DNA of 64,000 bases from NCBI GenBank assembly GCA_965208325.1, contig OZ242326.1, positions 1,828,859 to 1,892,858 of the forward strand, read 5' to 3'. Under the pieces are notes generated by a model, which saw only the letters and a list, made by a program, of their open reading frames with translations, searched no databases and had not been told where the DNA came from. Of the stretch, positions 48,477 to 64,000 are shown piece after piece; within the stretch, counting starts at the first letter, position 1; each line of letters opens with the position of its first letter. The stretch is from Candidatus Poribacteria bacterium (GTDB lineage: Bacteria; Poribacteria; WGA-4E; PCPOR2b). The position numbers and the translations under genes were made by a program.

Positions 48477-49322
48477 CGATAAGGGCAACCACAAGGGGTG
48501 CGCCTACAGAAAATGAATCCGATGTAAGGGATGGCGCTATAACCGTTGGATCTTCTAGTGCACGGGATTTGCTATCGCCTTGGTTATTAGATCGGTTTGT
48601 CCTATTCAGTTGAGCGCGGCAAGATGCCGCGCCTACGGAGGATGGTGGCATACGCGCGGAAAGATGCCGCGCCTACGGAGGATGGTGGCATACGCGCGGA
48701 AAGATGCCGCGCCTACGGGGGTGGCGGCACACACGCGGCAAGATGCCGCGCCTACGGAGGATGGTGGCATACGCGCGGAAAGATGCCGCGCCTACGGGGG
48801 ATGGCGGCACACGCGCCGCAAGATGCCGCGCCTACGGGGGATGGTGGCATACGCGCGGAAAGATGCCGCGCCTACGGGGGGGCGGTGGCACACGCGCGGA
48901 AAGATGCCGCGCCTACGGGGGAGGCGGCACACGCGCGGAAAGATGCCGCGCCTACGGAGGTGGCGGCACACGCGCGGCAAGATGCCGCGCCTACGGGGGT
49001 GGCGGCACACGCGCGGCAAGATGCCGCGCCTACGGGGGGCGGTGGCACACGCGCGGCAAGATGCCGCACCTACGGGGGGCGGTGGCATACGCGCGGAAAG
49101 ATGCCGCGCCTACGGGGGTGGCGGCACACACGCGGCAAGATGCCGCGCCTACGGGGGATGGTGGCATACGCGCGGCAAGATGCCGCGCCTACGGGGGTGG
49201 CGGCACACGCGAGGCAAGATGCCGCGCCTACGGAGGGCGGTGGCACACGCGCGGCAAGATGCCGCGCCTACGGAGGAGGTGAGGTACGATACGCTATACA
49301 CCTGTCGCCCCTCCGGGGCTTA
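48477..49322. repeat. Composite REP element with 17 tandem 39-41-bp GTAG-REP subunits
   Basis: GCGCGG(C/A)AAGATGCCGCGCCTAC copies start from 48614 to 49249; same flanks as the 42.9-kb units. Confidence 0.95.
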
Positions 49323-50944: not shown

Positions 50945-51625
50945 TTGTTAATTGATGTCCGCAATTTAAAGAAGATATACGCAATCGGAAAAGTTGAAGT
51001 TCACGCCCTGCGCGGCGTTTCGTTTACTGTTGAATCCGGCGAGTTTATCGCTATCATGGGGCCGTCTGGTTCCGGGAAATCCACACTGATGGATATTCTC
51101 GGCTGCCTCGCAAAGCCGACGGAAGGCGAGTATTATCTTGAGGCGCAAGAGGTCGGCAAGCTATCGGATAATCATCTTGCGGAGATTCGCAACCGAAAAG
51201 TCGGTTTTGTGTTTCAATCGTTCAATCTACTGCCGCGGACGACAGCGTTACACAATGTCGAGTTGCCGCTTATCTACAGCGGTGTGGGGCGTAGAGAGCG
51301 GAAGCGGAGAGCTTTTGAAGCGTTGGAAGCTGTTGGATTGGCGGACCGCGTCAACCACAAATCCAATGAACTGTCCGGCGGGCAGATTCAGCGCGTTGCA
51401 ATTGCGCGCGCACTGGTCAATAATCCGTCAATTACCTTTGCCGATGAGCCGACGGGGAATTTGGACACGAAGTCAAGTGCAGAGCTTATGTCAATCTTCG
51501 AGGAGTTGAACCAAGGCGGCAACACGATTATCATGGTGACGCACGAGGCGGAACTTGCTGCCCATGCGCGGCGAATTCTCCACATTCGCGACGGTATGAT
51601 TGAACGAGACGCGCGGCGAGGGTGA
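50945..51625 (+). CDS. MacB/LolD-type ABC ATP-binding protein
   Basis: [33 protein letters not shown]. Confidence 0.93.
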
Positions 51626-51896
51626 ATGAAGGAGGGTAAAGAACCCCGCGGAGAAGCAAGGGTGGAAGGATGGAAGAGTAAAAACACTGCGGTTGCGTTG
51701 GTTGGCGGCCGCGAGGGGATTAATGCTAAAGACTTTAGGAATACCATCGCCCTCCCTATTCGGTCGGTTGATTAATTTACGCGAGAAACAACCTACAAAA
51801 ACTATCGCCTTCCCTATTCGGTCAGTTGATCCTCCTTGGCAAGGAGGGGGACAAATGCTAACTTGTCCTTGGGAAGGAAGAGGGGAAGAAAACACC

Positions 51897-52493
51897 GTCT
51901 GAACTGTGTTTTGGGGGATTGAATGATGGGGTGGGATTGTCCGAACTGTGATGCGTGGGATTAAATGATGGGCTATGATTGTCTGAACTGTGATTTATTT
52001 GATTAAATGGTGGGGTGTGATTGTCTGAACTGTGATTCGTGTGATTAAATGATAGACTATGATTAAAGAAGAGCACAAGTTTTCGGAATTGACTGGGAAG
52101 GTGATTGGATTCGCGATGAAAGTTCATTCAGCGTTGGGAAACGGATTTCAGGAAGTTATCTATCAGCGGGCATTAGAAATTGAAATGGCAAACGCAGGCG
52201 TAATTTTCAGCCGCGAGCACGAGATGCCAATCTACTATAATGGGGAGCAAATTGGCGCTCGAAGGGTTGATTTCTTAGTAGAATCCGTTGTCTGTGTGGA
52301 ATTGAAGGCAATCATGCAACTGGAAGATATCCATTTGGCGCAGGCGATAAATTATTTGGAGGCATACGATTTGGAGGTTGGGTTACTTATTAACTTTGGT
52401 GCAAGAAGTCTTCAGTTTAAAAGGGTAACCAATGAGAATTTTAAGCAGAGAAATCTAGGTAATCCTAAAATTGCATGAATCACGGTTAAGACA
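51897..52493 (+). mobile_element. Putative GxxExxY element E1: 4 x 42-bp left-end array, gene, inverted right end
   Basis: GTCTGAACTGTGAT units at 51897, 51939, 51981, 52023; AATCACGGTTAAGACA at 52478-52493. Confidence 0.65.
52059..52478 (+). CDS. GxxExxY protein (PD-(D/E)XK nuclease fold)
   Basis: LGNGFQEVIY, RVDFLVE..VELKA, QAINYL, GLLINFG. Confidence 0.93.
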   Translation: MIKEEHKFSELTGKVIGFAMKVHSALGNGFQEVIYQRALEIEMANAGVIFSREHEMPIYYNGEQIGARRVDFLVESVVCVELKAIMQLEDIHLAQAINYLEAYDLEVGLLINFGARSLQFKRVTNENFKQRNLGNPKIA

Positions 52494-52500
52494 TATTTGC

Positions 52501-52812
52501 TGTCTGAACTGTGATTCGTGTGATTAAATGATGGGCCATGATTGTCTGAACTGTGATTTATGTGATTAAATGATGGGCTGGGATTGTCTGAACTGTGATT
52601 TATGTGATTAAATGATGGGCTATGATTAAAGAATAGCATGAGTATTCGGAGTTGACTGGGAAGGTGATTGGATGTACCATAACAGTTCGTTCGGGCGTGA
52701 ACAGGAGAGGCCTATATGCTTTAGAGAGCAACAATACGGCGCGCAAAGAAACGATAATTTCAAGCAAAGAAATAGAAGGAAGTTTAATATTCTATAAATC
52801 ACGGTTAAGACA
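52501..52812 (+). mobile_element. Internally deleted GxxExxY derivative E2 (3 x 42-bp array)
   Basis: Units at 52502, 52544, 52586; MIKE*HEYSELTGKVIG remnant; gene 3' remnant; right end 52797-52812. Confidence 0.65.
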
Positions 52813-52815
52813 ACG

Positions 52816-55404
52816 ATGGCACTGAAGAAATCACAAATTTACGCGTCGCTTTGGCAGAGTTGCGACGAGTTGCGCGGCGGCATGGATTCCTCCCAATACA
52901 AGGATTATATCCTGACGCTGCTGTTTATGAAGTATGTCTCGGACAAGTACGCCGACGATAGTTACGCTCTGGTTGATATTCCTGACGGAGGCGGCTTCGA
53001 GGACATGGCGAAGCTAGGCGGCGACAAGGAGATTGGCGACAAAATCAACAAGATTATCGGAAGGTTTGCGGAGGCAAACGAACTCAAAGGGGTCGTCGAT
53101 CAGGCGGATTTCAACGACGCGAGCAAACTTGGCGCCGGCAAAGAGATGCAGGACCGGTTATCCAAGCTGGTCGCTATATTCGATGCGCTCGACTTTCGTG
53201 CCAACCGTGCCGAGGGAGACGATTTGCTCGGAGACGCATATGAGTACCTCATGCGCCACTTCGCCACCGAGTCTGGCAAAAGCAAGGGACAGTTCTACAC
53301 TCCCGCCGAGGTATCCCGCATCATGGCGAAGGTAATCGGAATTGGGCCGGACACCCGGCAGAACCACACCATCTACGATCCGGCTTGCGGCTCAGGTTCG
53401 TTGCTGCTGAAAGCCGCAGACGAGGCGCCAAACGAAATTAGCATTTATGGTCAGGAAAAGGACATCGCTACCTACGCGCTTGTGCGAATGAACATGTTTC
53501 TGCACGGCAATCCGACTGCGGTCATCTGGCAAGGAAACACGCTGTCTACCCCGCACTTCAAAAATCAAAACAGCGGCTTAAAGACCTTCGATTTCGCCGT
53601 CGCTAATCCGCCCTTCTCCGACAAAGCCTGGAACACCGGCTTCAATCCAGCGCACGACGAGTTTCGTCGCTTCGAGTATGGGGTTCCGCCCGCCAGAAAC
53701 GGCGATTACGCCTTTCTGCTGCACTTCATTACCTCGCTCAACAGCAGAGGCAAAGGCGCAATTATTCTGCCTCATGGCGTACTGTTTCGCGGCAACAAGG
53801 AGGCGGATATCCGAAGGAAGCTTATTCAACAAGGATTCATTAAAGGAATCATCGGTTTGCCCGCCAATCTTTTCTACGGCACCGGCATCCCCGCCTGCAT
53901 TCTGGTCATCGACAAGGAGAACGCCCACGCACGTACCGGCATTTTCATGATTGACGCCAGCAAGGGTTTCATTAAGGACGGCAACAAGAACCGACTCCGC
54001 GCCCAGGATATCCACAAGGTTGTGGATGTCTTCAATACGCAGACTGAGCTTGAGGGCTACTCCCGGATGGTGCCGGTATCCGAGATTTCGGCCCCTACCA
54101 GCGATTACAACCTCAATATCCCGCGTTACATTGACGCCAGCGAGCCGGAAGATTTGCACGACCTTGACGCCCATCTGAACGGCGGCATCCCAGACACGGA
54201 CATAGATGCGCTTAATACTTATTGGTCGGTATTTCCTTCGCTTCGTCCAGAACTGTTTAAGGCTAACGGGAGGCAAGGCTACAGCGACCCTAAAGTGGCG
54301 ACGCAGCAGGTAAAAGCCACTATCCTCAATCATAGTGAGTTTGCCGCGTTCAAACTACGTGCGAGAATCATCTTCAACACTTGGTGGGATGCCCACGAAC
54401 CGATTCTGCTAGGTGTCAATGCCGACACTATTCCCAAGAGAGTCGTCGACCGGTTATCGCAAGATCTCCTCGCCCAATTCAACAAACTTCCACTCCTTGA
54501 TCGGTATGATGTGTACCAGGGACTAATGGACTATTGGGAAGACGTCATGCAGGACGATGTATATCTGGTCGTAGCAGACGGCTGGTTGGCAGGACGAACC
54601 CTAAGGCAAACCTACGACAAGGAATTGCCGGATTTCACGAGAAAGAAAGGACAAAAAACTGTTAAGTACGTTGGTGAACTAATTCCAGCGTCTTTAGTGA
54701 TTAGCAGATTTTTTTATGATGAAAAGAAGAAACTAGAGCGACTTGAGGCCGAAATTGAAGTGTTGACGCAACGAAAGGAAGAATTTGAAGAAGAACACGG
54801 AGATGGCGAAGGGGCACTGGTTGGTCTTGAAGGTAGCAATGGGAATATAACTAAAGGCAATGTCACCAAACGAATGAAGGAACATCACGAAAACCTTTTG
54901 AAGGTATACCCAGATAAAACATCTAAACACACGCAAATTAAATCGGTAAAGATCAAAGATCTGAGTAATAGAGAATGGATTGAGAAAATCAGAAACAAAG
55001 AAATTTTATCTAAGGAATCAAATAATTCTTATACTCATGATGCTGAAGGAATACTTGAGGAATTAGACGTGCTTTACGACTATCTCGAACTCCTAACAGT
55101 AGAAGCGAGACAAAAGAAGCTACACAAGTGTACACTTAATAACCTACATACCGCGGTTATAGCAAAGTATGATAATCTGACCGAGGCAGAAATCAAAATA
55201 CTTGTAGTTAAGGACAAATGGTTTACAGGAATCCAGGGAGTGATCGAAGGCGAGGTTGAACGACTGACACAGCAACTTACCGGTCGTGTGAATGAGTTAG
55301 AGGAGCGGTATGCGCAGGCATTGCCAGAATTGGATTGCAAGGTACAAGCGTTCGCCATGAAAGTTGCAGCGCATTTACGAATGATGGGGATTGATTGGGC
55401 ATGA
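52816..55404 (+). CDS. hsdM: Type I R-M methyltransferase subunit (long form)
   Basis: GQFYTP, DPACGSG, ANPPF, YNLNIPRY. Confidence 0.95.
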   Translation: MALKKSQIYASLWQSCDELRGGMDSSQYKDYILTLLFMKYVSDKYADDSYALVDIPDGGGFEDMAKLGGDKEIGDKINKIIGRFAEANELKGVVDQADFNDASKLGAGKEMQDRLSKLVAIFDALDFRANRAEGDDLLGDAYEYLMRHFATESGKSKGQFYTPAEVSRIMAKVIGIGPDTRQNHTIYDPACGSGSLLLKAADEAPNEISIYGQEKDIATYALVRMNMFLHGNPTAVIWQGNTLSTPHFKNQNSGLKTFDFAVANPPFSDKAWNTGFNPAHDEFRRFEYGVPPARNGDYAFLLHFITSLNSRGKGAIILPHGVLFRGNKEADIRRKLIQQGFIKGIIGLPANLFYGTGIPACILVIDKENAHARTGIFMIDASKGFIKDGNKNRLRAQDIHKVVDVFNTQTELEGYSRMVPVSEISAPTSDYNLNIPRYIDASEPEDLHDLDAHLNGGIPDTDIDALNTYWSVFPSLRPELFKANGRQGYSDPKVATQQVKATILNHSEFAAFKLRARIIFNTWWDAHEPILLGVNADTIPKRVVDRLSQDLLAQFNKLPLLDRYDVYQGLMDYWEDVMQDDVYLVVADGWLAGRTLRQTYDKELPDFTRKKGQKTVKYVGELIPASLVISRFFYDEKKKLERLEAEIEVLTQRKEEFEEEHGDGEGALVGLEGSNGNITKGNVTKRMKEHHENLLKVYPDKTSKHTQIKSVKIKDLSNREWIEKIRNKEILSKESNNSYTHDAEGILEELDVLYDYLELLTVEARQKKLHKCTLNNLHTAVIAKYDNLTEAEIKILVVKDKWFTGIQGVIEGEVERLTQQLTGRVNELEERYAQALPELDCKVQAFAMKVAAHLRMMGIDWA

Positions 55405-56666
55405 ACACGGCAAAGACACTATCGCCAATACCACATCTACAAAGGTTTAGCGGTGATTGGCAAATGAAGCGACTTCAGGAAATTTCAGATATTAATCCCC
55501 AGAACGTTTTAAGTAACACAAATCCAGACTACAAATTCAACTACATTTCGCTTGAGCATGTAGATAAGGGAAGTTTGCTGGGTTATTCCGAAGAAGTCTT
55601 TCGCACAGCTCCCTCAAGGGCACAGCGCATCCTTCAACATGGTGACGTACTCATGTCAACAGTCAGGCCAAACCTTATGGCACATCTCTTTTTTCACGAC
55701 CAAGTACCGAATGCCGTTTGTTCCACAGGCTTCGCCGTCCTTCGTGCAAAATGCAACCTATCCGCCCCTTATTTTCTATTTGTCCAATTATTTAGCCAAA
55801 GCGTGAATGATCAGATTACAAAAATCATTGCCGGATCGAATTACCCAGCTATCAATAGCCGTGACATCATATTTATTGAGATTCCTTGCCCCCCTCAAAT
55901 ATGCGAACAGCACGCGATTGCCAAGGTACTGTCGGATGTGAACGGTTTGATTGGGGCGTTGGATGCACTCATTGCGAAAAAGCGGGCAATCAAACAAGCA
56001 ACCATGCAGCAACTCCTCACCGGTAAGGCACGCCTGCCGGGGTTTAGTGGGGAGTGGGAGGCAAGACAGTTGAGAGAGCTTGGTACCTTCAAAAAAGGCC
56101 GCGGGATAAAGCGAGATGAAATATCTTACGAAGGGCTGCCATGTATCCGCTATGGAGAACTATACACACGATACCAAGACTATATCTTGAAGTTAGCATC
56201 TCGTATACCACCTACTGTTGCTGCAACTGCGTTGCCTATCAGGACTGGAGATCTCCTATTTGCGGGGTCAGGTGAAACCGCAGAAGAAATTGGGCGCTGC
56301 GCGGCGTATGTCGGCAAAGAAAAAGCGTACGCCGGTGGAGACATCATCGTATTGACAGCATCAGGACAGAATTCGATTTATCTTGGTCATCTAATGAACC
56401 ATCCAATTGTGTCTGTGCAGAAAACTCGTATGGGTCAGGGCGACGCTGTCGTTCATATCAGTACCAATAATTTGGCTCAAATTCAGATAAAACTCCCGCC
56501 TATTGCAGAACAAAACACCATCGCCACTGTACTCTCCGACATGGACGCCGAAATTGTCGCGTTGGAGGAGCGTCGGGACAAGACCCGTGCCATCAAGCGG
56601 GGAATGATGCAGCAGCTTCTTACGGGGCGGGTACGGTTGGTGAAATCTGGTGCGGGTACGGTCTGA
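55401..56666 (+). CDS. hsdS: Type I R-M specificity subunit
   Basis: ATGA overlap with hsdM; two TRDs each followed by EQ..IA.VLSD...MQQLLTG. Confidence 0.93.
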   Translation: MNTAKTLSPIPHLQRFSGDWQMKRLQEISDINPQNVLSNTNPDYKFNYISLEHVDKGSLLGYSEEVFRTAPSRAQRILQHGDVLMSTVRPNLMAHLFFHDQVPNAVCSTGFAVLRAKCNLSAPYFLFVQLFSQSVNDQITKIIAGSNYPAINSRDIIFIEIPCPPQICEQHAIAKVLSDVNGLIGALDALIAKKRAIKQATMQQLLTGKARLPGFSGEWEARQLRELGTFKKGRGIKRDEISYEGLPCIRYGELYTRYQDYILKLASRIPPTVAATALPIRTGDLLFAGSGETAEEIGRCAAYVGKEKAYAGGDIIVLTASGQNSIYLGHLMNHPIVSVQKTRMGQGDAVVHISTNNLAQIQIKLPPIAEQNTIATVLSDMDAEIVALEERRDKTRAIKRGMMQQLLTGRVRLVKSGAGTV

Positions 56667-56836
56667 GCTGTGATTCGTGTGATTAAATGATGGGCTATGA
56701 TTAAAGAAGGGAATAAGTTTTCTGAGGTGACTGGGAAGGTGATTGGCTGTGCCGAGACGGTGTATTCGGCAAACCGCCATTCACACAATCTTCAATCGAT
56801 AAAATCGTGACAAATCCTTAAATCACGGTTCAGACA
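56660..56836 (+). mobile_element. Internally deleted GxxExxY derivative E3
   Basis: One 42-bp unit at 56661, MIKEGNKFSEVTGKVIG remnant, AATCACGGTTCAGACA at 56821-56836. Confidence 0.65.
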
Positions 56837-56894
56837 ATGTTAGATTTCGCCACTAAACTAGCTCCGCCATTTCGAATTAAAAGGACTGCCCTGC

Positions 56895-56984
56895 GGCATT
56901 AACCGGGGGATTATGCAGTAACTTCTCACGGGGCGGCTGCGGTTGATGAAGCCCAACCCAGCTCGGGAGCGATTGGAGAATTGA
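56895..56984 (+). pseudogene. Degenerate duplicate of the hsdS 3' end
   Basis: GINRGIMQ*LLTGRLRLMK versus hsdS AIKRGMMQQLLTGRVRLVK. Confidence 0.75.
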
Positions 56985-57191
56985 ATACTAAGCGGTCCTA
57001 TGTATGAAGATATAAAACTAAAATACACATTTACAATCGACTCCGTTTTTAATACCTCCTGCCAAGGAATTAAGAGCTATCTTATAGATAGACCTCGAAT
57101 CCCCATAACCAAATGTACCCGTCGACTAAAAAACGCCTACTAAAGAATCCTTAAGGACAACACGAGCGTTTCTTAAAGCGTTAGGAAGTGT

Positions 57192-57665
57192 ATGAATATT
57201 ACATTTTCGGATCAGGAAATTGAAGCGTTGATACAGGAACGCAAAGTTTTACCCAATAACTGGTATGGGCAATTCTCCACAAAAAGGAAGCGTCGTCACA
57301 AGGAACGACATCTAGATGTGATTGGTGAAGCGGAGAATGAATTTCACGTCATAATCAGGGAAAACCAAGTTAATCAGTTAGACTTTTCAGTCATTTTAGC
57401 GGTTCGTATTCCCGAATCAAGCAGAAGTTTCCGCCTTCGTCGCTACAACGGCGGGAGCCACGAACATACCAACCAGATTGAAAAAGTAAGGTTTCACGGC
57501 TTCCACATTCATTACGCGACAGAACAATATCAGCAGAAGGGACTAGCAGAGGACTTGTATGCAGAACCAACAAACCGCTATACTGACGTTAATGGCGCCC
57601 TTCAGTGTCTGATTGTCGACGCAAATTTCGAAGAATCGAATGAGTTGCAGGGCACTCTATTTTAG
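57192..57665 (+). CDS. Hypothetical protein (DUF6978-like)
   Basis: LRRYNG..HEHTN...FHIH motif; paired with DUF1828 gene. Confidence 0.65.
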   Translation: MNITFSDQEIEALIQERKVLPNNWYGQFSTKRKRRHKERHLDVIGEAENEFHVIIRENQVNQLDFSVILAVRIPESSRSFRLRRYNGGSHEHTNQIEKVRFHGFHIHYATEQYQQKGLAEDLYAEPTNRYTDVNGALQCLIVDANFEESNELQGTLF

Positions 57666-57677
57666 GAGGCGTAAGCA

Positions 57678-58448
57678 ATGTCCATCAATACCATAGAACA
57701 AGACTTCATGGCTAAGGTCTCGGCAGAGGTTCGACTTTCAGCCGAGGACAGCGAGCGTTTCCGTGTGTTTACCCCTTTCATGTTTGAGGACGGCGATCAC
57801 TTCGTCATTGTCCTGAAAAAAGACGGTAATCGGTGGATACTCACCGACGAAGCACATACCTTCATGCACCTCACCTACGACATTGATGAAAAGCTGCTTC
57901 ATCGTGGTACGCGCCGGGAGATTATTTCTAAAGCGCTCTCCATGTTCGAGGTGGAGGACCGCAATGGCGAGCTAATACTTGAAATACAAGATGGGTGTTA
58001 CGGCGAGGCCCTTTTTTCCTTTGCTCAGGCAATTCTCAAGATAGCCGACGTGTCGTACTTGACAAGAGAAAGAGTACAATCTACGTTTATGGAAGATTTT
58101 CACGCGTTGTTGCATGAAAAAGTGCCAAAACAGCGCATGAGTTTCAACTGGTGTCCTCGAGAATATGATACTAATGGAATATATGCGGTAGATTGTCGAA
58201 TCAACGGAATGCCTGAACCGCTCTTCGTTTACGCCCTCCATAGTAACACTAGGGTCAGAGACGCCATAATTGCACTGCAACGGTTCAAGGCGTGGGAGAT
58301 GCCATTTCAACCGCTGGGCATTTTTGAGGATAGGGAGAAAAACACTCGCAAGGTATTGGCATGTTTCGACGCGGTGTGCGAAAAGCAGTTTCACAAGTTT
58401 TACGAAAACCAAGAAGAGATTGGAGTTTATCTAAGTCAGTACATCTGA
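57678..58448 (+). CDS. DUF1828-domain protein
   Basis: TPFMFEDGDH...W.LTDEAHT; AGGAGG RBS. Confidence 0.75.
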   Translation: MSINTIEQDFMAKVSAEVRLSAEDSERFRVFTPFMFEDGDHFVIVLKKDGNRWILTDEAHTFMHLTYDIDEKLLHRGTRREIISKALSMFEVEDRNGELILEIQDGCYGEALFSFAQAILKIADVSYLTRERVQSTFMEDFHALLHEKVPKQRMSFNWCPREYDTNGIYAVDCRINGMPEPLFVYALHSNTRVRDAIIALQRFKAWEMPFQPLGIFEDREKNTRKVLACFDAVCEKQFHKFYENQEEIGVYLSQYI

Positions 58449-58497
58449 GGATTCCCCGATCAACAGCAACATGGTGGAACCGGTTTGAAGGAGATTC

Positions 58498-60054
58498 ATG
58501 ATTGAGAAGCGGTTAAGAAACCTCTGGGGCCAGTTACAAAGTAAGAAACCGCATCTGCCGCATTTTCTGTCAGAAATAAGCTTGGATGGTATCCGTGGAT
58601 TTAGTGATTTAAGGGTGCGATTCGATTACCCAGTGAGCGTAATTGCCGGAGGAAACGCTACGGGCAAGTCAACGGTACTCTTTACGGCTGCGTGTGCCTA
58701 TAAGGTGACAGGCGCCGGTGTTAAAGATTTCGTGCCCTCCTCTTTATTCCCGGATTACCACCCCAAGGTCGGCGGACGCAAAGACATGCGGCAGACGGTC
58801 ACGATGGATTTCTATTACCAAACACCTGACGGAATTGCTTCCATGCGGTGGCGGCGCGGCAAAGGCTGGAATCGGAGTTATTTTGGCCGCAAAAACGCCA
58901 GTCAGCCCGAGCGGCAGGTCTATCTCAGAACGCTCAGCAATCTGAGTAATCCGTCAGAGGTACGCGGCGTTCTCAACATGTCGCGCCTGAAGACCAAACC
59001 TGAAGAGACTCCCTTGACGGCACTAGAGATTGAATTTGCCCATCAGATGCTTCCTTTCAGATATTCTGAGGTGGTAAATTTGTCCAGCGGCAAGAAAAAT
59101 CTCCTCTTTGCCTCGCAAGAAGGCGGGGCGGCTTACTCCGAGTTGCACATGGCGGCTGGGGAACGGGCAATTCTGCGGTTATCGAAAGAAATTACAAAAC
59201 TCGAAGGCGTGTTGGTGCTGATTGACGAGGTGGAAGCGGGGCTGCATCCTTGGGTGCAGCAGTTACTCATGGTGCATTTGCAGCAGTTGGCACTTCGCCA
59301 AGATCTTCAGATTATTGTGACATCCCACAGTCCCGTGGTTCTCGAATCAGTTCCGTCAAATGGGAGAATTTTTCTCGACCGAGATGAGTTATCGGGTGAG
59401 GTCGTTGTGCGACCCGCATACCGCGATTTAATCCAGAATGCGCTCTATGGACGCATCAATGAGGAGTTCAAACTTCTTTGTGAAGACGAGATTGCTGAAG
59501 GTGTTTTGCAAGGCATATTCGACGTTTTGGTACCTGAAGAGGGAATCAGTATGGATTCGGTTCGCATCGGACGGGACACAGGAGCAGACCAATTTCCTGT
59601 ACATGCCGAGACTTTAAGTAAATTCGGTCAGATTCAAGACACCGTCTTCATTCTTGACGGCGATCAGCGCGGCGGGGAAACACCGGGCAGGATACAGAAT
59701 GCGGCTGGACCTGGTACAAATATTCCAATTCTGTTTCTTCCTGGCAAAGAGGCGCCGGAGAGTTGGGTATGGGAAAGGCTGCGGCATATTCCTGAAGAGG
59801 ATGCGTCACAACTGGGCTTAAATCGGGCAAGCCTGTCCAACGTCATACGCAAGTTGGATGCCATCTATGACTCGGCATCTGACAGCGCTTCAGAAATAGC
59901 GAAGAACAAATTCCGGAGTCTGTCCGAAAGTCTTCGTAGAGAGGCGCCGGAAATTTGTCGAATCGTCGCACGGTTGGAAGCAGATCGGAATGCGAGTGAC
60001 ATTCAACCGCTCGTTGGAGATTTACGCGGAATTCTAAGACTGTGGCGCGGGTAA
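58498..60054 (+). CDS. ABC-type (AAA_21) ATPase fused to TOPRIM-like domain (OLD-like)
   Basis: GGNATGKS, MAAGE, LIDEVEAGLHP, VTSHS; LLCED and ILDGD. Confidence 0.8.
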   Translation: MIEKRLRNLWGQLQSKKPHLPHFLSEISLDGIRGFSDLRVRFDYPVSVIAGGNATGKSTVLFTAACAYKVTGAGVKDFVPSSLFPDYHPKVGGRKDMRQTVTMDFYYQTPDGIASMRWRRGKGWNRSYFGRKNASQPERQVYLRTLSNLSNPSEVRGVLNMSRLKTKPEETPLTALEIEFAHQMLPFRYSEVVNLSSGKKNLLFASQEGGAAYSELHMAAGERAILRLSKEITKLEGVLVLIDEVEAGLHPWVQQLLMVHLQQLALRQDLQIIVTSHSPVVLESVPSNGRIFLDRDELSGEVVVRPAYRDLIQNALYGRINEEFKLLCEDEIAEGVLQGIFDVLVPEEGISMDSVRIGRDTGADQFPVHAETLSKFGQIQDTVFILDGDQRGGETPGRIQNAAGPGTNIPILFLPGKEAPESWVWERLRHIPEEDASQLGLNRASLSNVIRKLDAIYDSASDSASEIAKNKFRSLSESLRREAPEICRIVARLEADRNASDIQPLVGDLRGILRLWRG

Positions 60055-60072
60055 TCCGATGGAATTAGGGAC

Positions 60073-63000
60073 ATGAACACGGTAGGAAAAAAGGAATTCT
60101 TAACACAGCAGCGCGTGATTTCATTTTTCGTTCGCGAGCTCGGCTACGGCGGTCTTGGCAATCGCAAGGATCTTCCTAACAATAGCAACATTGAGACTGA
60201 GATTCTGACCAAATGGCTGAACAAGCATGGGTACAACGAACAAATTATTGAGAGGGCTTTATTTGAGGTAGACAAGGCTGCCGCGGTCGTCGGGAGCAGA
60301 AAGCTCTTTGACGCGAACCGAGAGGTTTACGGCTTGCTACGGTACGGAGTGAAGATCCAACCCGATGTGGGTGAACACCACCAGACCGTCCGCCTGATAG
60401 ACTGGAAAAACCCGGACAACAACGACTTCGGCATCGCGGAAGAGGTAACCGTTTCCGGGGAAAACGACAAGCGGCCCGATATTGTGCTCTACATCAACGG
60501 AATTGCGATCGGAGTGCTGGAGTTAAAGCGTTCGACGGTGTCGGTTTCCGAGGGAATCCGACAAAACCTCGACAACCAGAAGCCGGAATTTATCCGCCCG
60601 TTCTTTTCGACGGTGCAACTCATCATGGCGGGGAACGAGACCGAAGGGCTGCGCTACGGCGTGATTGAGACCTCTGAGAAGCACTGGCTGCGATGGAAGG
60701 AAACCGACGAAATTGACGACCACGACCGCCCTTTGTTTCGCGAGTTGCGCCAATTCTGCAGCAGGGAACGGATGCTTGAAATTCTGCACGATTTTATCGT
60801 TTTTGATGCCGGAACCAAAAAAATCTGCCGGCATAATCAGTTTTTCGGCGTGAAATCCGCGCAGGCGCGCGTCAAGAAGCGAGAGGGCGGTGTCATTTGG
60901 CATACCCAGGGCAGCGGTAAGAGCCTGACAATGGTCTGGCTGGCGAAATGGATTCGCGAAAACGTGACCAACAGCCGCGTACTGATAATCACAGACCGCA
61001 CCGAACTGGATGAACAGATTGAAAGGGTTTTCAAAGGTGTCAACGAGGACATCCACCGCACTCGGAGCGGTCCTGACTTGGCAGCGACGCTCGCTGACCC
61101 GGCAAAATGGTTGATTTGTTCGTTAATGCAGAAGTTCGGCAGATCGGGGGAAATCAGCGACGACGATGTGGATAGATACGTCAAGGAATTCAAACAGAAT
61201 CTGCCGGCCGATTTTCACGTCCGCGGCGAGGTATTCGTCTTTGTGGATGAATGCCACCGCACGCAGTCGGGCAAACTGCATAGGGCGATGAAGACTATTC
61301 TGCCGGGGGCAATGTTAATCGGCTTCACGGGTACGCCGCTGCTCAAGCAGGACAAATCTCAAAGTATCGAAACTTTCGGCACCTACATTCATACCTACAA
61401 GTACGACGAGGCGGTTGAAGACAACGTGGTGCTTGACCTGCGCTATGAGGCGCGGGATATTGACCAGCACATCACATCGCAGGAACAGATTGATGAATGG
61501 TTCGATCTCAATACGCGCGGGTTGGCTGACGTGCCGAAGGCGCAGCTAAGACAGCGTTGGGGCACGATGCAGAAAGTTTTGAGTTCACAGGAGAGATTGA
61601 ACCGGATTGTCGCAGATATTCTGATGGACATGGAGAGACGCGATCGTTTAATGAGCGGCCGCGGCAACGCAATGCTAATATCCGACAGCATCTTCTCGGC
61701 ATGCCGGTTTTTTGAGTTGTTTCAGGGAACGCCGCTGCAGGGCAAATGCGCTATCGTGACCTCTTACGATCCGTCCGTGTCTGACATCAAGGGAGAGGAA
61801 ACGGGCGAGGGAGAGACGGATAAACAGTTCAAATTCCACACTTACCGAAAGATGCTCGCGCAACACTTTAACGAACCGGAAAACGCCGCGCTGAACAGGG
61901 CGAAACAATTTGAGGGTGAGGTCAAGAAGCGTTTTGTCGAGGAGCCGGAACAGATGAAACTGCTGATTGTCGTGGACAAGCTGTTAACTGGTTTCGACGC
62001 TCCGCCGGCGACATATCTCTACATTGATAAGCACATGCAGGACCACGGCTTGTTTCAGGCAATCTGCCGAGTCAACCGCCTCCACGGCGAAGACAAGGAA
62101 TACGGCTACATCATCGACTATAAAGACCTGTTCCGCACCCTAAACAAGGCAATCTCGGACTACACCGGAGAAGCCTTCGCCGGCTATGATACCGAAGACG
62201 TAAAAGGGTTGTTGGAAAACCGCCTTGAGAAAGCGCGGGAGCGGCTTGAGGAGGCACGCGAGGCCGTCAAGGCGCTCTGCGAACCGGTCGAACCGCCTCG
62301 CGACAGCGCGGCATATTCGCGTTACTTCTGCGCCGCCGAGAGCGGCAACGAGGCGCAGCTAAAAGCCAACGAGCAGAAACGCTTAAACCTTTACAAACTG
62401 GTTGCTGCATTACTGCGCGCCTATGCCAATCTGGCAAACGAGATGAGTGAAGCGGGTTTTAGCGACGCGGCGGCAGAGGAAATCAAAGACGAAGTCGATC
62501 ACTACGAGACGGTGCGTCAGGAGGTCAAGCTGGCGAGCGGCGATTATATCGACCTGAAAATGTATGAGCCTGATATGCGCCATCTGTTGGATGCCTACAT
62601 CAGGGCGGAGGAGAGCAGGACGCTCTCCGAGTTCGATGATCTGACGCTCGTGGATTTAATCGTCAAGCGCGGCGAAGGCGCTGTTGAGGCATTCCCCGGC
62701 GGGTTGAAGGGGAATCCTAAAGCGGCGGCAGCAACGATTGACAACAACGTCCGCCGGTTGATTATCGACCGGACACCGGTCAATCCCATATACTATGAGG
62801 AGATGTCAAAGCTGCTTGATGCGCTAATCCAACAGCGCAAACAGGAAGCAATTGAATACCAAACCTATCTGTCCCGCATTGTCGAATTGACGAAGCAGAT
62901 TGATACATACGGCGCCCAGTCACCTTATCCGCCTGAAATCAAAAACGGAGCGCAGCGGGCATTATTCGACAACATAAAAATAACCAACATGTCGGAAATT

Positions 63001-63234
63001 GCAGAGACGCTAGGCCAGAACGAGAGCCCTCTCAGCCGAGAAATCAGGGGGCAGATGTCAATTGCAGTAGACGAGGCTATTCTCAATTCAAGAGAGGATG
63101 ATTGGAGAGGACATAGACTCAAAGAACGGAAAATACACAGGGCAATGGCTCGGGTCATCGCGGAAGAATTTGGCGATTACACTGTTGACGTTGATTCGCT
63201 CTTTGAGATTGTGAAAAAGCAGCGTGAGTATTGA
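60073..63234 (+). CDS. hsdR: Type I R-M restriction subunit
   Basis: RPDIVLYING..ELK, HTQGSGKS, DECHR, FTGTP, LTGFDAP, QAICRVNR. Confidence 0.95.
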   Translation: MNTVGKKEFLTQQRVISFFVRELGYGGLGNRKDLPNNSNIETEILTKWLNKHGYNEQIIERALFEVDKAAAVVGSRKLFDANREVYGLLRYGVKIQPDVGEHHQTVRLIDWKNPDNNDFGIAEEVTVSGENDKRPDIVLYINGIAIGVLELKRSTVSVSEGIRQNLDNQKPEFIRPFFSTVQLIMAGNETEGLRYGVIETSEKHWLRWKETDEIDDHDRPLFRELRQFCSRERMLEILHDFIVFDAGTKKICRHNQFFGVKSAQARVKKREGGVIWHTQGSGKSLTMVWLAKWIRENVTNSRVLIITDRTELDEQIERVFKGVNEDIHRTRSGPDLAATLADPAKWLICSLMQKFGRSGEISDDDVDRYVKEFKQNLPADFHVRGEVFVFVDECHRTQSGKLHRAMKTILPGAMLIGFTGTPLLKQDKSQSIETFGTYIHTYKYDEAVEDNVVLDLRYEARDIDQHITSQEQIDEWFDLNTRGLADVPKAQLRQRWGTMQKVLSSQERLNRIVADILMDMERRDRLMSGRGNAMLISDSIFSACRFFELFQGTPLQGKCAIVTSYDPSVSDIKGEETGEGETDKQFKFHTYRKMLAQHFNEPENAALNRAKQFEGEVKKRFVEEPEQMKLLIVVDKLLTGFDAPPATYLYIDKHMQDHGLFQAICRVNRLHGEDKEYGYIIDYKDLFRTLNKAISDYTGEAFAGYDTEDVKGLLENRLEKARERLEEAREAVKALCEPVEPPRDSAAYSRYFCAAESGNEAQLKANEQKRLNLYKLVAALLRAYANLANEMSEAGFSDAAAEEIKDEVDHYETVRQEVKLASGDYIDLKMYEPDMRHLLDAYIRAEESRTLSEFDDLTLVDLIVKRGEGAVEAFPGGLKGNPKAAAATIDNNVRRLIIDRTPVNPIYYEEMSKLLDALIQQRKQEAIEYQTYLSRIVELTKQIDTYGAQSPYPPEIKNGAQRALFDNIKITNMSEIAETLGQNESPLSREIRGQMSIAVDEAILNSREDDWRGHRLKERKIHRAMARVIAEEFGDYTVDVDSLFEIVKKQREY

Positions 63235-63958
63235 GATTGACGGCGGAAGTATAGAAGTTGCGGGGATACCGGTAGAAATCGTTCGCAAGGACATCAAAAA
63301 CCTGCATGTCGGTGTATATCCACCGAGTGGGCGGGTTCGGGTAGCGGCGCCATTGCGCCTTGATGATGAGGCGGTGCGGCTCGCCCTGATTTCACGCCTT
63401 GGATGGATTCGACGCAAACAGGCGGAGTTTCAACAACAGGTGCGTCAATCTCAGCGCGAGTTCGTTACCGGCGAAAGCCACTATTTTGATGGACGGCGTT
63501 ACCGGCTGGATGTAATCGAGCGAGACGCACCGCCAACGGTTAAACCACGAAACAACACGATACTTGAATTGGGAGTCCGCCCGAACACTGACTGGAAAGC
63601 GCGGGAAGCGGTGATTCATCGTTGGTATCGCCGCCACCTGCGTAACCAGTTGCCGCCACTCATCGGAAAATGGGAATCTAAGCTGGACGTGACCGTCGAA
63701 GACGCGCGAATCAAGAAGATGAAAACGCTTTGGGGCTCCTGTAACGTTGAGGCGAAACGGATATGGCTCAACCTTGAACTGGCAAAGAAACCGAAGTCAT
63801 GCCTTGTGTACATCCTTGTGCACGAAATGGTGCATCTGCATGAGCGTCAGCATAACGACCGGTTTCACGAGTTGATGGACAAGTTTCTACCACAATGGCG
63901 CAGCTATCGGAATGAACTCAACCGTGCGCCGCTTGCCCATGAAGAGTGGCGGTATTGA
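63224..63958 (+). CDS. YgjP/DUF45 M48-like zinc metallopeptidase
   Basis: WGSCN, YILVHEMVH...HNDRF; usual position after hsdR. Confidence 0.9.
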   Translation: MSIEIDGGSIEVAGIPVEIVRKDIKNLHVGVYPPSGRVRVAAPLRLDDEAVRLALISRLGWIRRKQAEFQQQVRQSQREFVTGESHYFDGRRYRLDVIERDAPPTVKPRNNTILELGVRPNTDWKAREAVIHRWYRRHLRNQLPPLIGKWESKLDVTVEDARIKKMKTLWGSCNVEAKRIWLNLELAKKPKSCLVYILVHEMVHLHERQHNDRFHELMDKFLPQWRSYRNELNRAPLAHEEWRY

Positions 63959-64000
63959 ATACAATCGGTGTCACAACGGCGACTAACCGGAGCGTGGTGG

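Follow-up and report, generated by a model that had tools for sequence, protein, structure and literature searches.

In the excerpts considered here of four reports (PMC3116915, PMC3337134, PMC5581495, bioRxiv 10.1101/2021.07.10.451892), REP-associated tyrosine transposases (RAYTs) occur together with dispersed doublets of repetitive extragenic palindromic (REP) sequences, the REPINs. We analyzed a 64,000-nucleotide stretch of a Candidatus Poribacteria genome (GenBank assembly GCA_965208325.1, contig OZ242326.1, positions 1,828,859 to 1,892,858 of the forward strand), referred to as the window, in which a gene of the GxxExxY nuclease family lies between inverted, repetitive arms in a way that recalls REPIN/RAYT systems and also insertion sequences, miniature inverted-repeat transposable elements (MITEs), homing endonuclease genes, BOX elements, and Tn7. 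Free-standing homing endonuclease genes include some of the PD-(D/E)XK fold, such as I-Ssp6803I; homing genes normally lack long inverted arms and are not known to leave dispersed arm copies. The PD-(D/E)XK nuclease TnsA of Tn7 cuts the 5' ends of its transposon and needs the DDE transposase TnsB, while the BOX elements of Streptococcus pneumoniae are boxA-boxB-boxC modules with boxB in tandem and are not known to carry a gene. With moderate confidence, we read the locus in the window as three copies, one intact and two decayed, of a selfish cassette of ~470 bp, a size below that of the smallest known insertion sequences.

The three cassette copies, A (intact), B, and C (both internally deleted), lie in a type I restriction operon and bracket hsdM and hsdS (Table 1). 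Each left-arm unit consists of GTCTGAAC followed by 9-bp subunits containing TGATT. Tandem Repeats Finder (TRF) reported a period of 42 bp at 51897-52053 (3.7 copies, 80% matches) and at 52501-52627 (3.0 copies, 91% matches), and one further unit stands at 56660, in keeping with the fourfold, threefold, and single occurrence of the left end given in a preliminary description of this DNA made from its letters alone. The ATG of the GxxExxY gene is contained in the last unit of the first array, and the 9-bp subunits of the right arm of A double as codons for the C-terminal tail of the protein. The right end, AATCACGGTT(A/C)AGACA, recurs at 52478-52493, 52797-52812, and 56821-56836 and is an imperfect inverse of the left terminus, with arms of 16 to 27 nt that are 81 to 95% complementary. 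A 7-base spacer separates the right end of A (52493) from cassette B (52501), the hsdM ATG is located 3 nt past the right end of B, and the hsdS stop codon TGA is part of the left terminus GTCTGA of C. The last junction recurs in G001, a genome of the same genus, and the layout of cassette A is repeated both there and in other phyla. Gene, arrays, inverted ends, and deleted copies were all found where the preliminary description had placed them (TRF, inverted pairs, profile matches, and alignment). It had also stated that the deleted copies keep the 5' codons; a three-copy alignment of B and C with A showed that ~70 nt of 5' coding sequence are indeed retained, along with ~60 nt of the 3' end, which it had omitted. 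As it had reported, no target-site duplication is visible at A, B, C, or their G001 counterparts, and none was seen by eye at 32 two-ended cassettes.

The claim that the gene and its two arms form a discrete unit moved between lineages was upheld by comparison with other phyla, where sharp boundaries provide the strongest evidence for it. In a scan of one genome per species, relatives of the window protein were encoded in at least 592 stretches (592 of the first 600). The best 80 of these relatives have 60 to 81% identity with the window protein. Most belong to Bacteroidota, and Binatia, Chlorobi-group, Leptospiraceae, Fibrobacterota, and Calditrichia genomes are further hosts; the 81% match is to a cassette in a Flavobacterium genome that has different neighbors. 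Many of these other-phylum cassettes end in identical GTCTGAAC...GTTCAGACA. In an alignment of two poribacterial and five other-phylum cassettes, including flanks of 100 and 85 nt, conservation sets in at GTCTGAAC and ends after GTTCAGACAA: conserved columns make up a fraction of 0.05 to 0.3 outside, 0.5 to 0.9 inside, and 0 to 0.4 after GTTCAGACAA.

The arms themselves are matched to each other. When 150 nt upstream of the gene was compared with 220 nt downstream at the 78 loci with enough flank, the inverted repeat exceeded that in all 100 shuffles at 46 loci, versus 2 of 52 neighboring open reading frames (ORFs) in the same loci. Exact GTCTGAA was present upstream at 49 of 108 loci, exact TTCAGAC downstream at 54, and both at 32. 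Left arms agreed with their own right arms at 14.06 of 23 positions, compared to 10.59 (standard deviation, 0.54; maximum, 12.78) in 2000 shuffles of partners, none of which reached the observed agreement. The anatomy that emerges from these sequences is GTCTGAAC plus four or five TGATT-containing 9-bp units, a gene of 125 to 139 amino acids whose first and last codons are built into the arms, and an inverted right arm ending in GTTCAGACA. Together, these comparisons show, as far as sequence can, a discrete, horizontally spread unit with matched arms and with decayed and truncated derivatives. A tblastn search at 1e-5 found no match in phages, and 8 of 72,556 plasmid records had one.

Compared with the described systems, the cassette looks like an undescribed kind of selfish mobile DNA. 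As far as the excerpts cited above describe REPIN/RAYT systems, it resembles them in having a small low-copy gene flanked by repeats that are scattered gene-less over the genome, in a repeat type that tracks the gene clade, and in repeats that outlast a missing gene. It differs from them in its enzyme, a PD-(D/E)XK hydrolase (PF13366) rather than an HUH/Y1 (IS200-like) transposase; in its arms, which are arrays of 9-bp units capped by GTCTGAAC rather than REP hairpins of 20 to 40 nt; in being wedged between stop and start codons; and in occurring in different phyla with as much as 81% identity, a pattern that points to horizontal transfer and not to prolonged vertical inheritance. With insertion sequences and MITEs it shares terminal inverted repeats (TG...CA), subterminal repeated units, an element taken up by one ORF, and derivatives that are internally deleted or reduced to a solo end. 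Unlike insertion sequences, it has no recognized transposase family (DDE, HUH, serine, or tyrosine) and no target-site duplication, and the window genome holds one intact copy per arm type instead of several near-identical full copies. B, C, and the gene-less hairpins of left and right end (L+R) found for two other arm types, T2 and T3, are MITE-like in being short, noncoding, and bounded by the inverted repeats of the parent, whereas the dispersed copies of the window's own type, T1, are solo left units rather than two-ended, and no duplication was seen.

The remaining comparisons involve either the nuclease or the repeats. Like a homing gene, the cassette would be a selfish nuclease gene that relies on host repair, makes no target duplication, and spares its neighbors, and it may cleave a target; unlike one, it is framed by long inverted arms and leaves dispersed arm copies. 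With TnsA and Tn7 it shares a nuclease of the restriction-enzyme fold, TGT...ACA termini, and several subterminal sites, an analogy that would place the action of the nuclease at the ends, but the cassette encodes no TnsB-like partner. BOX elements are likewise modular, with variable tandem amplification of one module and partly complementary end modules, the difference being that tandem amplification here affects the arm of a gene cassette. Literature searches on GxxExxY, on PDDEXK_3, and on PDDEXK with mobile inverted repeats, with supplementary tables lying outside their reach, found no paper describing such a cassette; the passages on GxxExxY/PDDEXK_3 proteins in PMC8934634 and PMC3424549 are not about repeats, and the papers retrieved for PDDEXK with mobile inverted repeats deal with other topics, judging by title and abstract.

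The ORF at 52059-52478 matches PF13366 (E value of 2.7e-37, 128.1 bits against a cutoff of 22) and TIGR04256, the GxxExxY model (E value of 4.9e-39, 133.3 bits against a cutoff of 35), and has the family motif as G29-x-x-E32-x-x-Y35. Among 25 aligned sequences, the window protein and 24 relatives of the same order, the catalytic positions E32, D71, K83, Q95, and Y99 are invariant and E81 is present in at least 90%. An AlphaFold (AF2) model built on this alignment was confident, with a mean predicted local distance difference test (pLDDT) score of 89; its best Foldseek match was Cas4 SSO0001 (E value of 4e-4), and the nearest solved folds were Cas4 SSO0001, lambda exonuclease, RecE, and MGME1, with modest TM-scores of ~0.5. 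Because of the conserved catalytic residues and these nearest folds, the protein is a minimal hydrolytic nuclease of the RecB/Cas4 type that is apparently active. A PDB sequence search found no relative at an E value of ≤0.001, no PADLOC defense model matched the gene, and the ORF, the only one in the cassette, matched no Pfam family other than PF13366 at an E value of ≤0.001. The whole window genome (G000; 4.71 Mb in a single contig) has two PF13366 genes with different arm types; the second follows another hsdM, and its arm pair is different but related.

Across 41 related genomes of the same order, PF13366 matches were found in 22. At 23 of the 30 loci fetched, TGTCTGAA/TTCAGACA-type ends with subrepeats lie within 400 nt of the gene, so that both here and at the other-phylum loci the end motifs accompany GxxExxY genes elsewhere, as the preliminary description had anticipated. 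Three arm types could be told apart: T1, with CTGTGATT units, as in the window; T2, with TCAGGATT units; and T3, with TCGCGGATT units. On a tree of 28 proteins, made after removal of L020 to L022 (truncated, fused, or weak), T1 and T2 each form one clade (Shimodaira-Hasegawa-like approximate likelihood ratio test [SH-aLRT] values of 99 and 96), T3 is a basal grade, and the four arm-less rows are distant. The expected covariation of end motifs with GxxExxY phylogeny was clear, since arm-type labels changed only 3 times on this tree, the minimum possible, and 0 of 200 shuffles gave as low a number. Arm-type clades cross host families. Because the arms touch the gene, this agreement shows that gene and arms are passed on together, by inheritance or transfer, and is no evidence of an interaction between them. 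Some gene-less L+R hairpins are located next to genes. At one locus of the survey (L019, G003:C1:3954615-3957953), the hsdM after the cassette is interrupted ~50 nt in by another left unit and a 5' gene remnant, the hsdM fragment continues into an unrelated membrane-protein gene, and the left arm has one extra 9-nt unit.

The ends also extend well beyond the locus, as the preliminary description supposed. G000 contains 38 exact copies of the 16-mer TGTCTGAACTGTGATT from the left terminus and 75 copies when as many as 2 mismatches are allowed, compared to 0 for a reversed-pattern control, so that the repeat is not a product of chance; arm ends are likewise present in related genomes and other phyla. 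The left unit is found genome-wide, while the CGG version of the right end is restricted to the three window copies. A census of G000 located 80 sites within 2 mismatches of a 15-mer core, 58 of which have the whole 42-nt unit and fall into 39 loci separated by more than 5 kb. Inner units of tandem arrays account for 5 of the 58, and the other 53 are last or solo units; after 22 of these 53 (3 of the 22 in the window) the sequence resembles the first 20 codons of the gene, using a threshold of more than 27 of 60 matching positions, the 99.9th percentile of random 60-mers. Because 22 of 53 keep these first codons, many scattered units descend from gene-bearing copies. The 42-bp left unit is thereby shown, at the sequence level, to amplify in tandem and to be scattered over the genome, partly with first-codon remnants.

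Other short repeat modules are attached to the scattered units, which frequently stand at the front of composite tandem arrays whose periods range from 286 to 490 nt (for example, G000:2007799-2008940 and 4247630-4248600), T1 units mostly coming after another module that ends in CCTACARRARCT. Modules such as ATCGCCCTCCCTATTCGGTCGGTTGAT, TCGCGATTCGGAGATCGCTCCTAC, and CGCTCTACCCAACCTACAAGAAC combine with the 42-bp unit at 51740-51830 of the window and at many other places in G000, and intergenic differences between G000 and its closest relative, G002, are mainly swaps of short repeat modules. At G000:C1:4538500-4551000, T3-type ends and a 73-nt gene-less L+R hairpin lie between genes of a defense-type island that, from sequence judgement only, encode ATPase, TIR-like, and FRG-like proteins. 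Other genomes of the order show further arrangements. G021:C1 has satellite-like arrays of T2 ends with periods of 100, 103, 113, 144, and 154 nt (for example, 3401994-3402910 and 4098088-4098678) in a genome without a GxxExxY gene. In G040, a 35-kb stretch (L034, G040:C2:10000-29999) has left ends followed by right ends in nearly every intergenic space, among genes for a Uma2 nuclease, a fatty-acyl reductase/ligase fusion, a HAD hydrolase, and a DDE transposase, together with repeated 300-amino-acid proteins whose weak similarity to the Rpn family is below the cutoff.

Several other identities for the repeats were considered and rejected. No end pair 0.6 to 6 kb apart in G000 encloses a transposase, which excludes a longer transposase-bearing element with the same ends in that size range. 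A search of 51000-58000 against Rfam (E value of ≤1) gave just weak microRNA/snoRNA-type chance matches far below gathering scores. By eye, a sigma-70 promoter in the 42-bp unit misfits, with hexamers spaced 11 or 20 nt apart. The integron attC core consensus is RYYYAAC/GTTRRRY, which the terminus misfits, and the gene is inside a palindrome rather than between palindromes. PF05635 four-helix-bundle genes do not share the ends, as the single G000 copy has different flanks.

Cassettes occupy a characteristic position between operon genes. At 28 of the 49 left ends found over the 108 loci, an upstream ORF of at least 60 codons terminates within the end, compared to 6.4% of random positions, and in 13 of the 28 the stop is the TGA of GTCTGA. 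Similarly, the start of an ORF of at least 60 codons lies 0 to 8 nt beyond 17 of 54 right ends (control, 10.4%), in 9 cases exactly one base past the end. The window has both features, the hsdS stop in C and the hsdM start after B. These junctions show, as a pattern in the sequences, a cassette wedged tightly between two operon genes, and we infer that it may be expressed from the host operon and hand translation on to it. Through this exact placement at a stop-start junction, the cassette might also govern how strongly the downstream restriction genes are expressed.

The history of the locus can be followed in part by comparison with G001, where a left unit, gene 1, and a right end precede hsdM and hsdS; behind these come a second left unit, an intact gene 2, a right end, and then the same debris as in the window. 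Because gene 2 is intact at the same site, copy C is the in-place remnant of a second GxxExxY gene, and a cassette is in this way shown, by sequence comparison, to decay in place by internal deletion. Copy B has no counterpart at the G001 locus. In the debris after C, the ATG-led fragment looks like the beginning of the gene located behind such cassettes in G038 and a Binatia genome, and 56890-56950, the degenerate hsdS 3' end, is 79% identical to 56584-56644; the debris may be the remnant of a deleted second hsdM-hsdS (methylase-specificity) pair. Nine sequencing runs were available as contigs only, and contigs break at repeats, making them uninformative on array copy number. In one (X6), a weak contig joint skips 52478-52796, with joint sides that are short (20 to 37 nt) and may be from other organisms. 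In another run from a different study (X5), 52024-52530 is identical (0 differences in 507 nt) and the adjoining hsdM contig, 52852-53747, differs at 79 of 896 positions, which could reflect a different strain with an exchanged methylase or mixed organisms.

The closest genome, G002 (91 to 95% nucleotide identity), lacks 51630 to ~64369 (G000:C1:1880488-1893227), a 12.7-kb restriction island comprising the cassettes, hsdM, hsdS, three embedded genes, hsdR, and a YgjP-like gene. In G000, directly oriented 42-bp units enclose the island; at the G002 site, only one unit is present, and it follows the stop codon of an ABC-transporter gene immediately. In its first half, this unit matches unit 2 of the left array best (17 of 21 positions), and downstream its flank resembles the one beside the right unit (9 of 14 versus 3 to 4 of 14). 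These matches are suggestive of gain or loss of the island by recombination within 42-bp units. The picture is not a clean one, because ~270 nt of other repeats on the left side of the island in G000 have no counterpart in G002, and because the island in G001 is at another place and has no 42-bp unit on its right. In G000 the repeats delimit a restriction island missing from one close relative, and they therefore bear on the gain and loss of defense islands.

The most likely mechanism, which we put at neither better nor worse than an even prospect, is that the arms are the substrate of the cassette's own nuclease and that copying is left to host repair. The enzyme would bind the repeated 9-bp units of both arms and cut at the conserved termini, and host recombination and repair would copy the cassette, since a hydrolytic nuclease cannot join DNA. 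Spread of this kind would be homing-like or gene-conversion-like, into sites already carrying an arm, rather than cut-and-paste transposition, and would account for the missing target duplication, the internally deleted copies (as aborted repair), and the tandem units. The arms would then serve as recombination sites, which can explain a 12.7-kb island between direct units and a single unit in the closest genome.

A broader proposal, possible but on the doubtful side, is that GxxExxY cassettes represent a novel class of autonomous mobile elements, at ~470 bp the smallest known, in which a minimal RecB/Cas4-like hydrolase recognizes arrays of 9-bp units in both arms and cuts at GTCTGAAC/GTTCAGAC, host repair copies the cassette into operon junctions, and gene-less offspring of the cassettes account for many of the hairpin and solo repeats between genes in Poribacteria, Bacteroidota, and other phyla. 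If true, this would give a function, selfish mobility, to a very large protein family without an assigned role, add a nuclease-only element to the known classes of mobile DNA, and explain the origin of a class of intergenic hairpin and tandem repeats. The preliminary description had named three outcomes as speaking against a mobile element (ends confined to this locus, no empty alleles, and motifs not associated with GxxExxY genes elsewhere), and none of them appears to hold; as to empty alleles, copy B is missing from the G001 locus and the whole island from the G002 site.

A number of observations weigh against a nuclease-driven cassette. In pattern counts over the 41 related genomes, for which reversed-pattern controls gave 0 to 2 per genome, 11 genomes without a PF13366 match (E value of ≤1e-5) have 31 to 338 arm-end matches: G005 (35 and 64), G007 (42 and 46), G012 (29 and 45), G014 (42 and 24), G019 (16 and 24), G020 (35 and 46), G021 (246 T2 and 92 T3), G025 (14, 234 [T2], and 15), G028 (2 and 29), G031 (91 and 21), and G040 (3 and 322 [T3]). 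G029, also without the gene, has 11 T1 and 38 T3 ends, and no T1-clade gene was among the typed matches of G032 (71 T1 ends) or G002 (30 T1 ends), while G001 has two intact T1 genes and just their own four ends. Much of the high arm copy number consists of local tandem arrays, as in G021, and in G040 the arms fill spaces between ordinary genes. T3 genes usually have right-type ends on both sides, direct rather than inverted, and the agreement of arm type with the tree could be plain linkage, with arms within 40 nt of the gene. The non-autonomous derivatives of the preliminary description survived in part: truncated units that keep the first codons are dispersed, but C is an in-place remnant and the dispersed T1 copies in G000 are solo left units without a right end. 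The comparison of filled with empty sites that it had proposed yielded no clean single-cassette empty site in five 20-kb same-genus regions; T1 units in them were shared or replaced together with neighboring modules, and two clean indels were unconnected with the repeat. Many of these points would fit arms that are an independent, lineage-wide repeat family, spread by an unlinked enzyme or by recombination and slippage, with GxxExxY as captured cargo that does not act on them. The gene-less genomes rich in arm ends, the arms between unrelated genes in G040, the predominance of tandem arrays, the absence of extra ends beside the two G001 genes, and the joint exchange of T1 units with neighboring modules, behind a CCTACARRARCT-ending one, all speak for such cargo. 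We consider it unlikely, though a serious competitor, given a single gene family enclosed by the same termini even in distant phyla, where the limits of the unit fall at the arms, codons at both ends of the gene that are part of the arms, and 19 solo units outside the window locus whose retained first codons point to gene-bearing ancestry. In addition, a transposase sharing these ends was not encountered, and two right ends in direct orientation enclose the only DDE gene of the G040 array.

Hairpin repeats could instead have come first, with GxxExxY as a homing-type endonuclease that cuts the center of an empty hairpin and is copied in by repair, gene-less hairpins being its targets. A gene always found between arms, with its own arm type per protein clade, is consistent with this, as are gene-less L+R hairpins adjoining genes, arms without genes in many genomes, and the lack of target duplication. 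We regard this order of events as improbable, because the coding remnants in B, C, and the 19 dispersed solo units mark at least these as derivatives of gene-bearing copies, because an ORF extending into both arms makes the arms more than flanking homology, and because the ends flanking T3 genes are direct. The chance is slimmer still that nothing here is actively mobile, the gene being a host or defense accessory of restriction operons, the arms expression signals (translation stop and restart, or an RNA stem), and the repeats spread by recombination alone. Both G000 genes and both G001 genes adjoin hsdM or hsdS, stop and start codons lie at the termini, and arm pairing covaries, as expected for such an accessory. 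However, a type I subunit was found within 1.5 kb at only 6 of the 30 loci of the order (a lower bound, from tblastn with window proteins), the gene is without a PADLOC match as noted above, and 81% identity to a protein of a Flavobacterium genome with different neighbors requires horizontal movement. A cassette whose nuclease acts on its own arms is the reading that we retain for the features in Table 1.

Table 1. Features of the cassette locus and restriction island, in window coordinates
Feature	Position	Strand	Basis or remark
Array of four 42-bp left-arm units	51897..52064	+	TRF, sequence, unit alignment
Cassette A, intact: last left unit, GxxExxY ORF, right arm	52022..52493	+	Sequence, repeat pairs, alignment
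GxxExxY / PDDEXK_3 nuclease gene, 139 amino acids	52059..52478	+	PF13366, TIGR04256 matches
Right arm of A: 9-bp AATC-type subunits, terminus AATCACGGTTAAGACA at 52478-52493	52431..52493	+	
Cassette B, internally deleted: three left units 52501-52627, 5' and 3' remnants, right terminus 52797-52812	52501..52812	+	
hsdM, type I methylase, between cassettes B and C	52816..55404	+	PF02384 (E value of 6e-103), PF12161
hsdS	55395..56666	+	PF01420
Cassette C, internally deleted: one left unit, 5' and 3' remnants, right terminus AATCACGGTTCAGACA	56660..56836	+	Three-copy alignment, G001 comparison
Debris after C: ATG-led fragment, then degenerate hsdS 3' end	56837..56990	+	
Rest of island: DUF6978, DUF1828 (PDC-M24B), AAA ATPase (HEC-04-like), hsdR, YgjP-like peptidase	57192..63958	+	
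hsdR	60073-63234	+	
YgjP-like peptidase	63224-63958	+	
Start of 1.6 left-arm units closing island on right	63981..64000	+	Full unit 64023-64064, beyond window end

Two further loci have short-unit repeats of other kinds. At G000:C1:4397560-4398200, arrays of a CATTACG heptamer lie on either side of a PF05635 (23S rRNA intervening sequence protein) gene, which is thus another small gene framed by short-unit arrays, with other units and no GTCTGAAC terminus. Within the window, upstream of an outer-membrane-factor-like gene, 48614-49281 is a GC-rich tandem repeat of 40 nt (16.9 copies, 90% identity) that yields long false ORFs in several frames.

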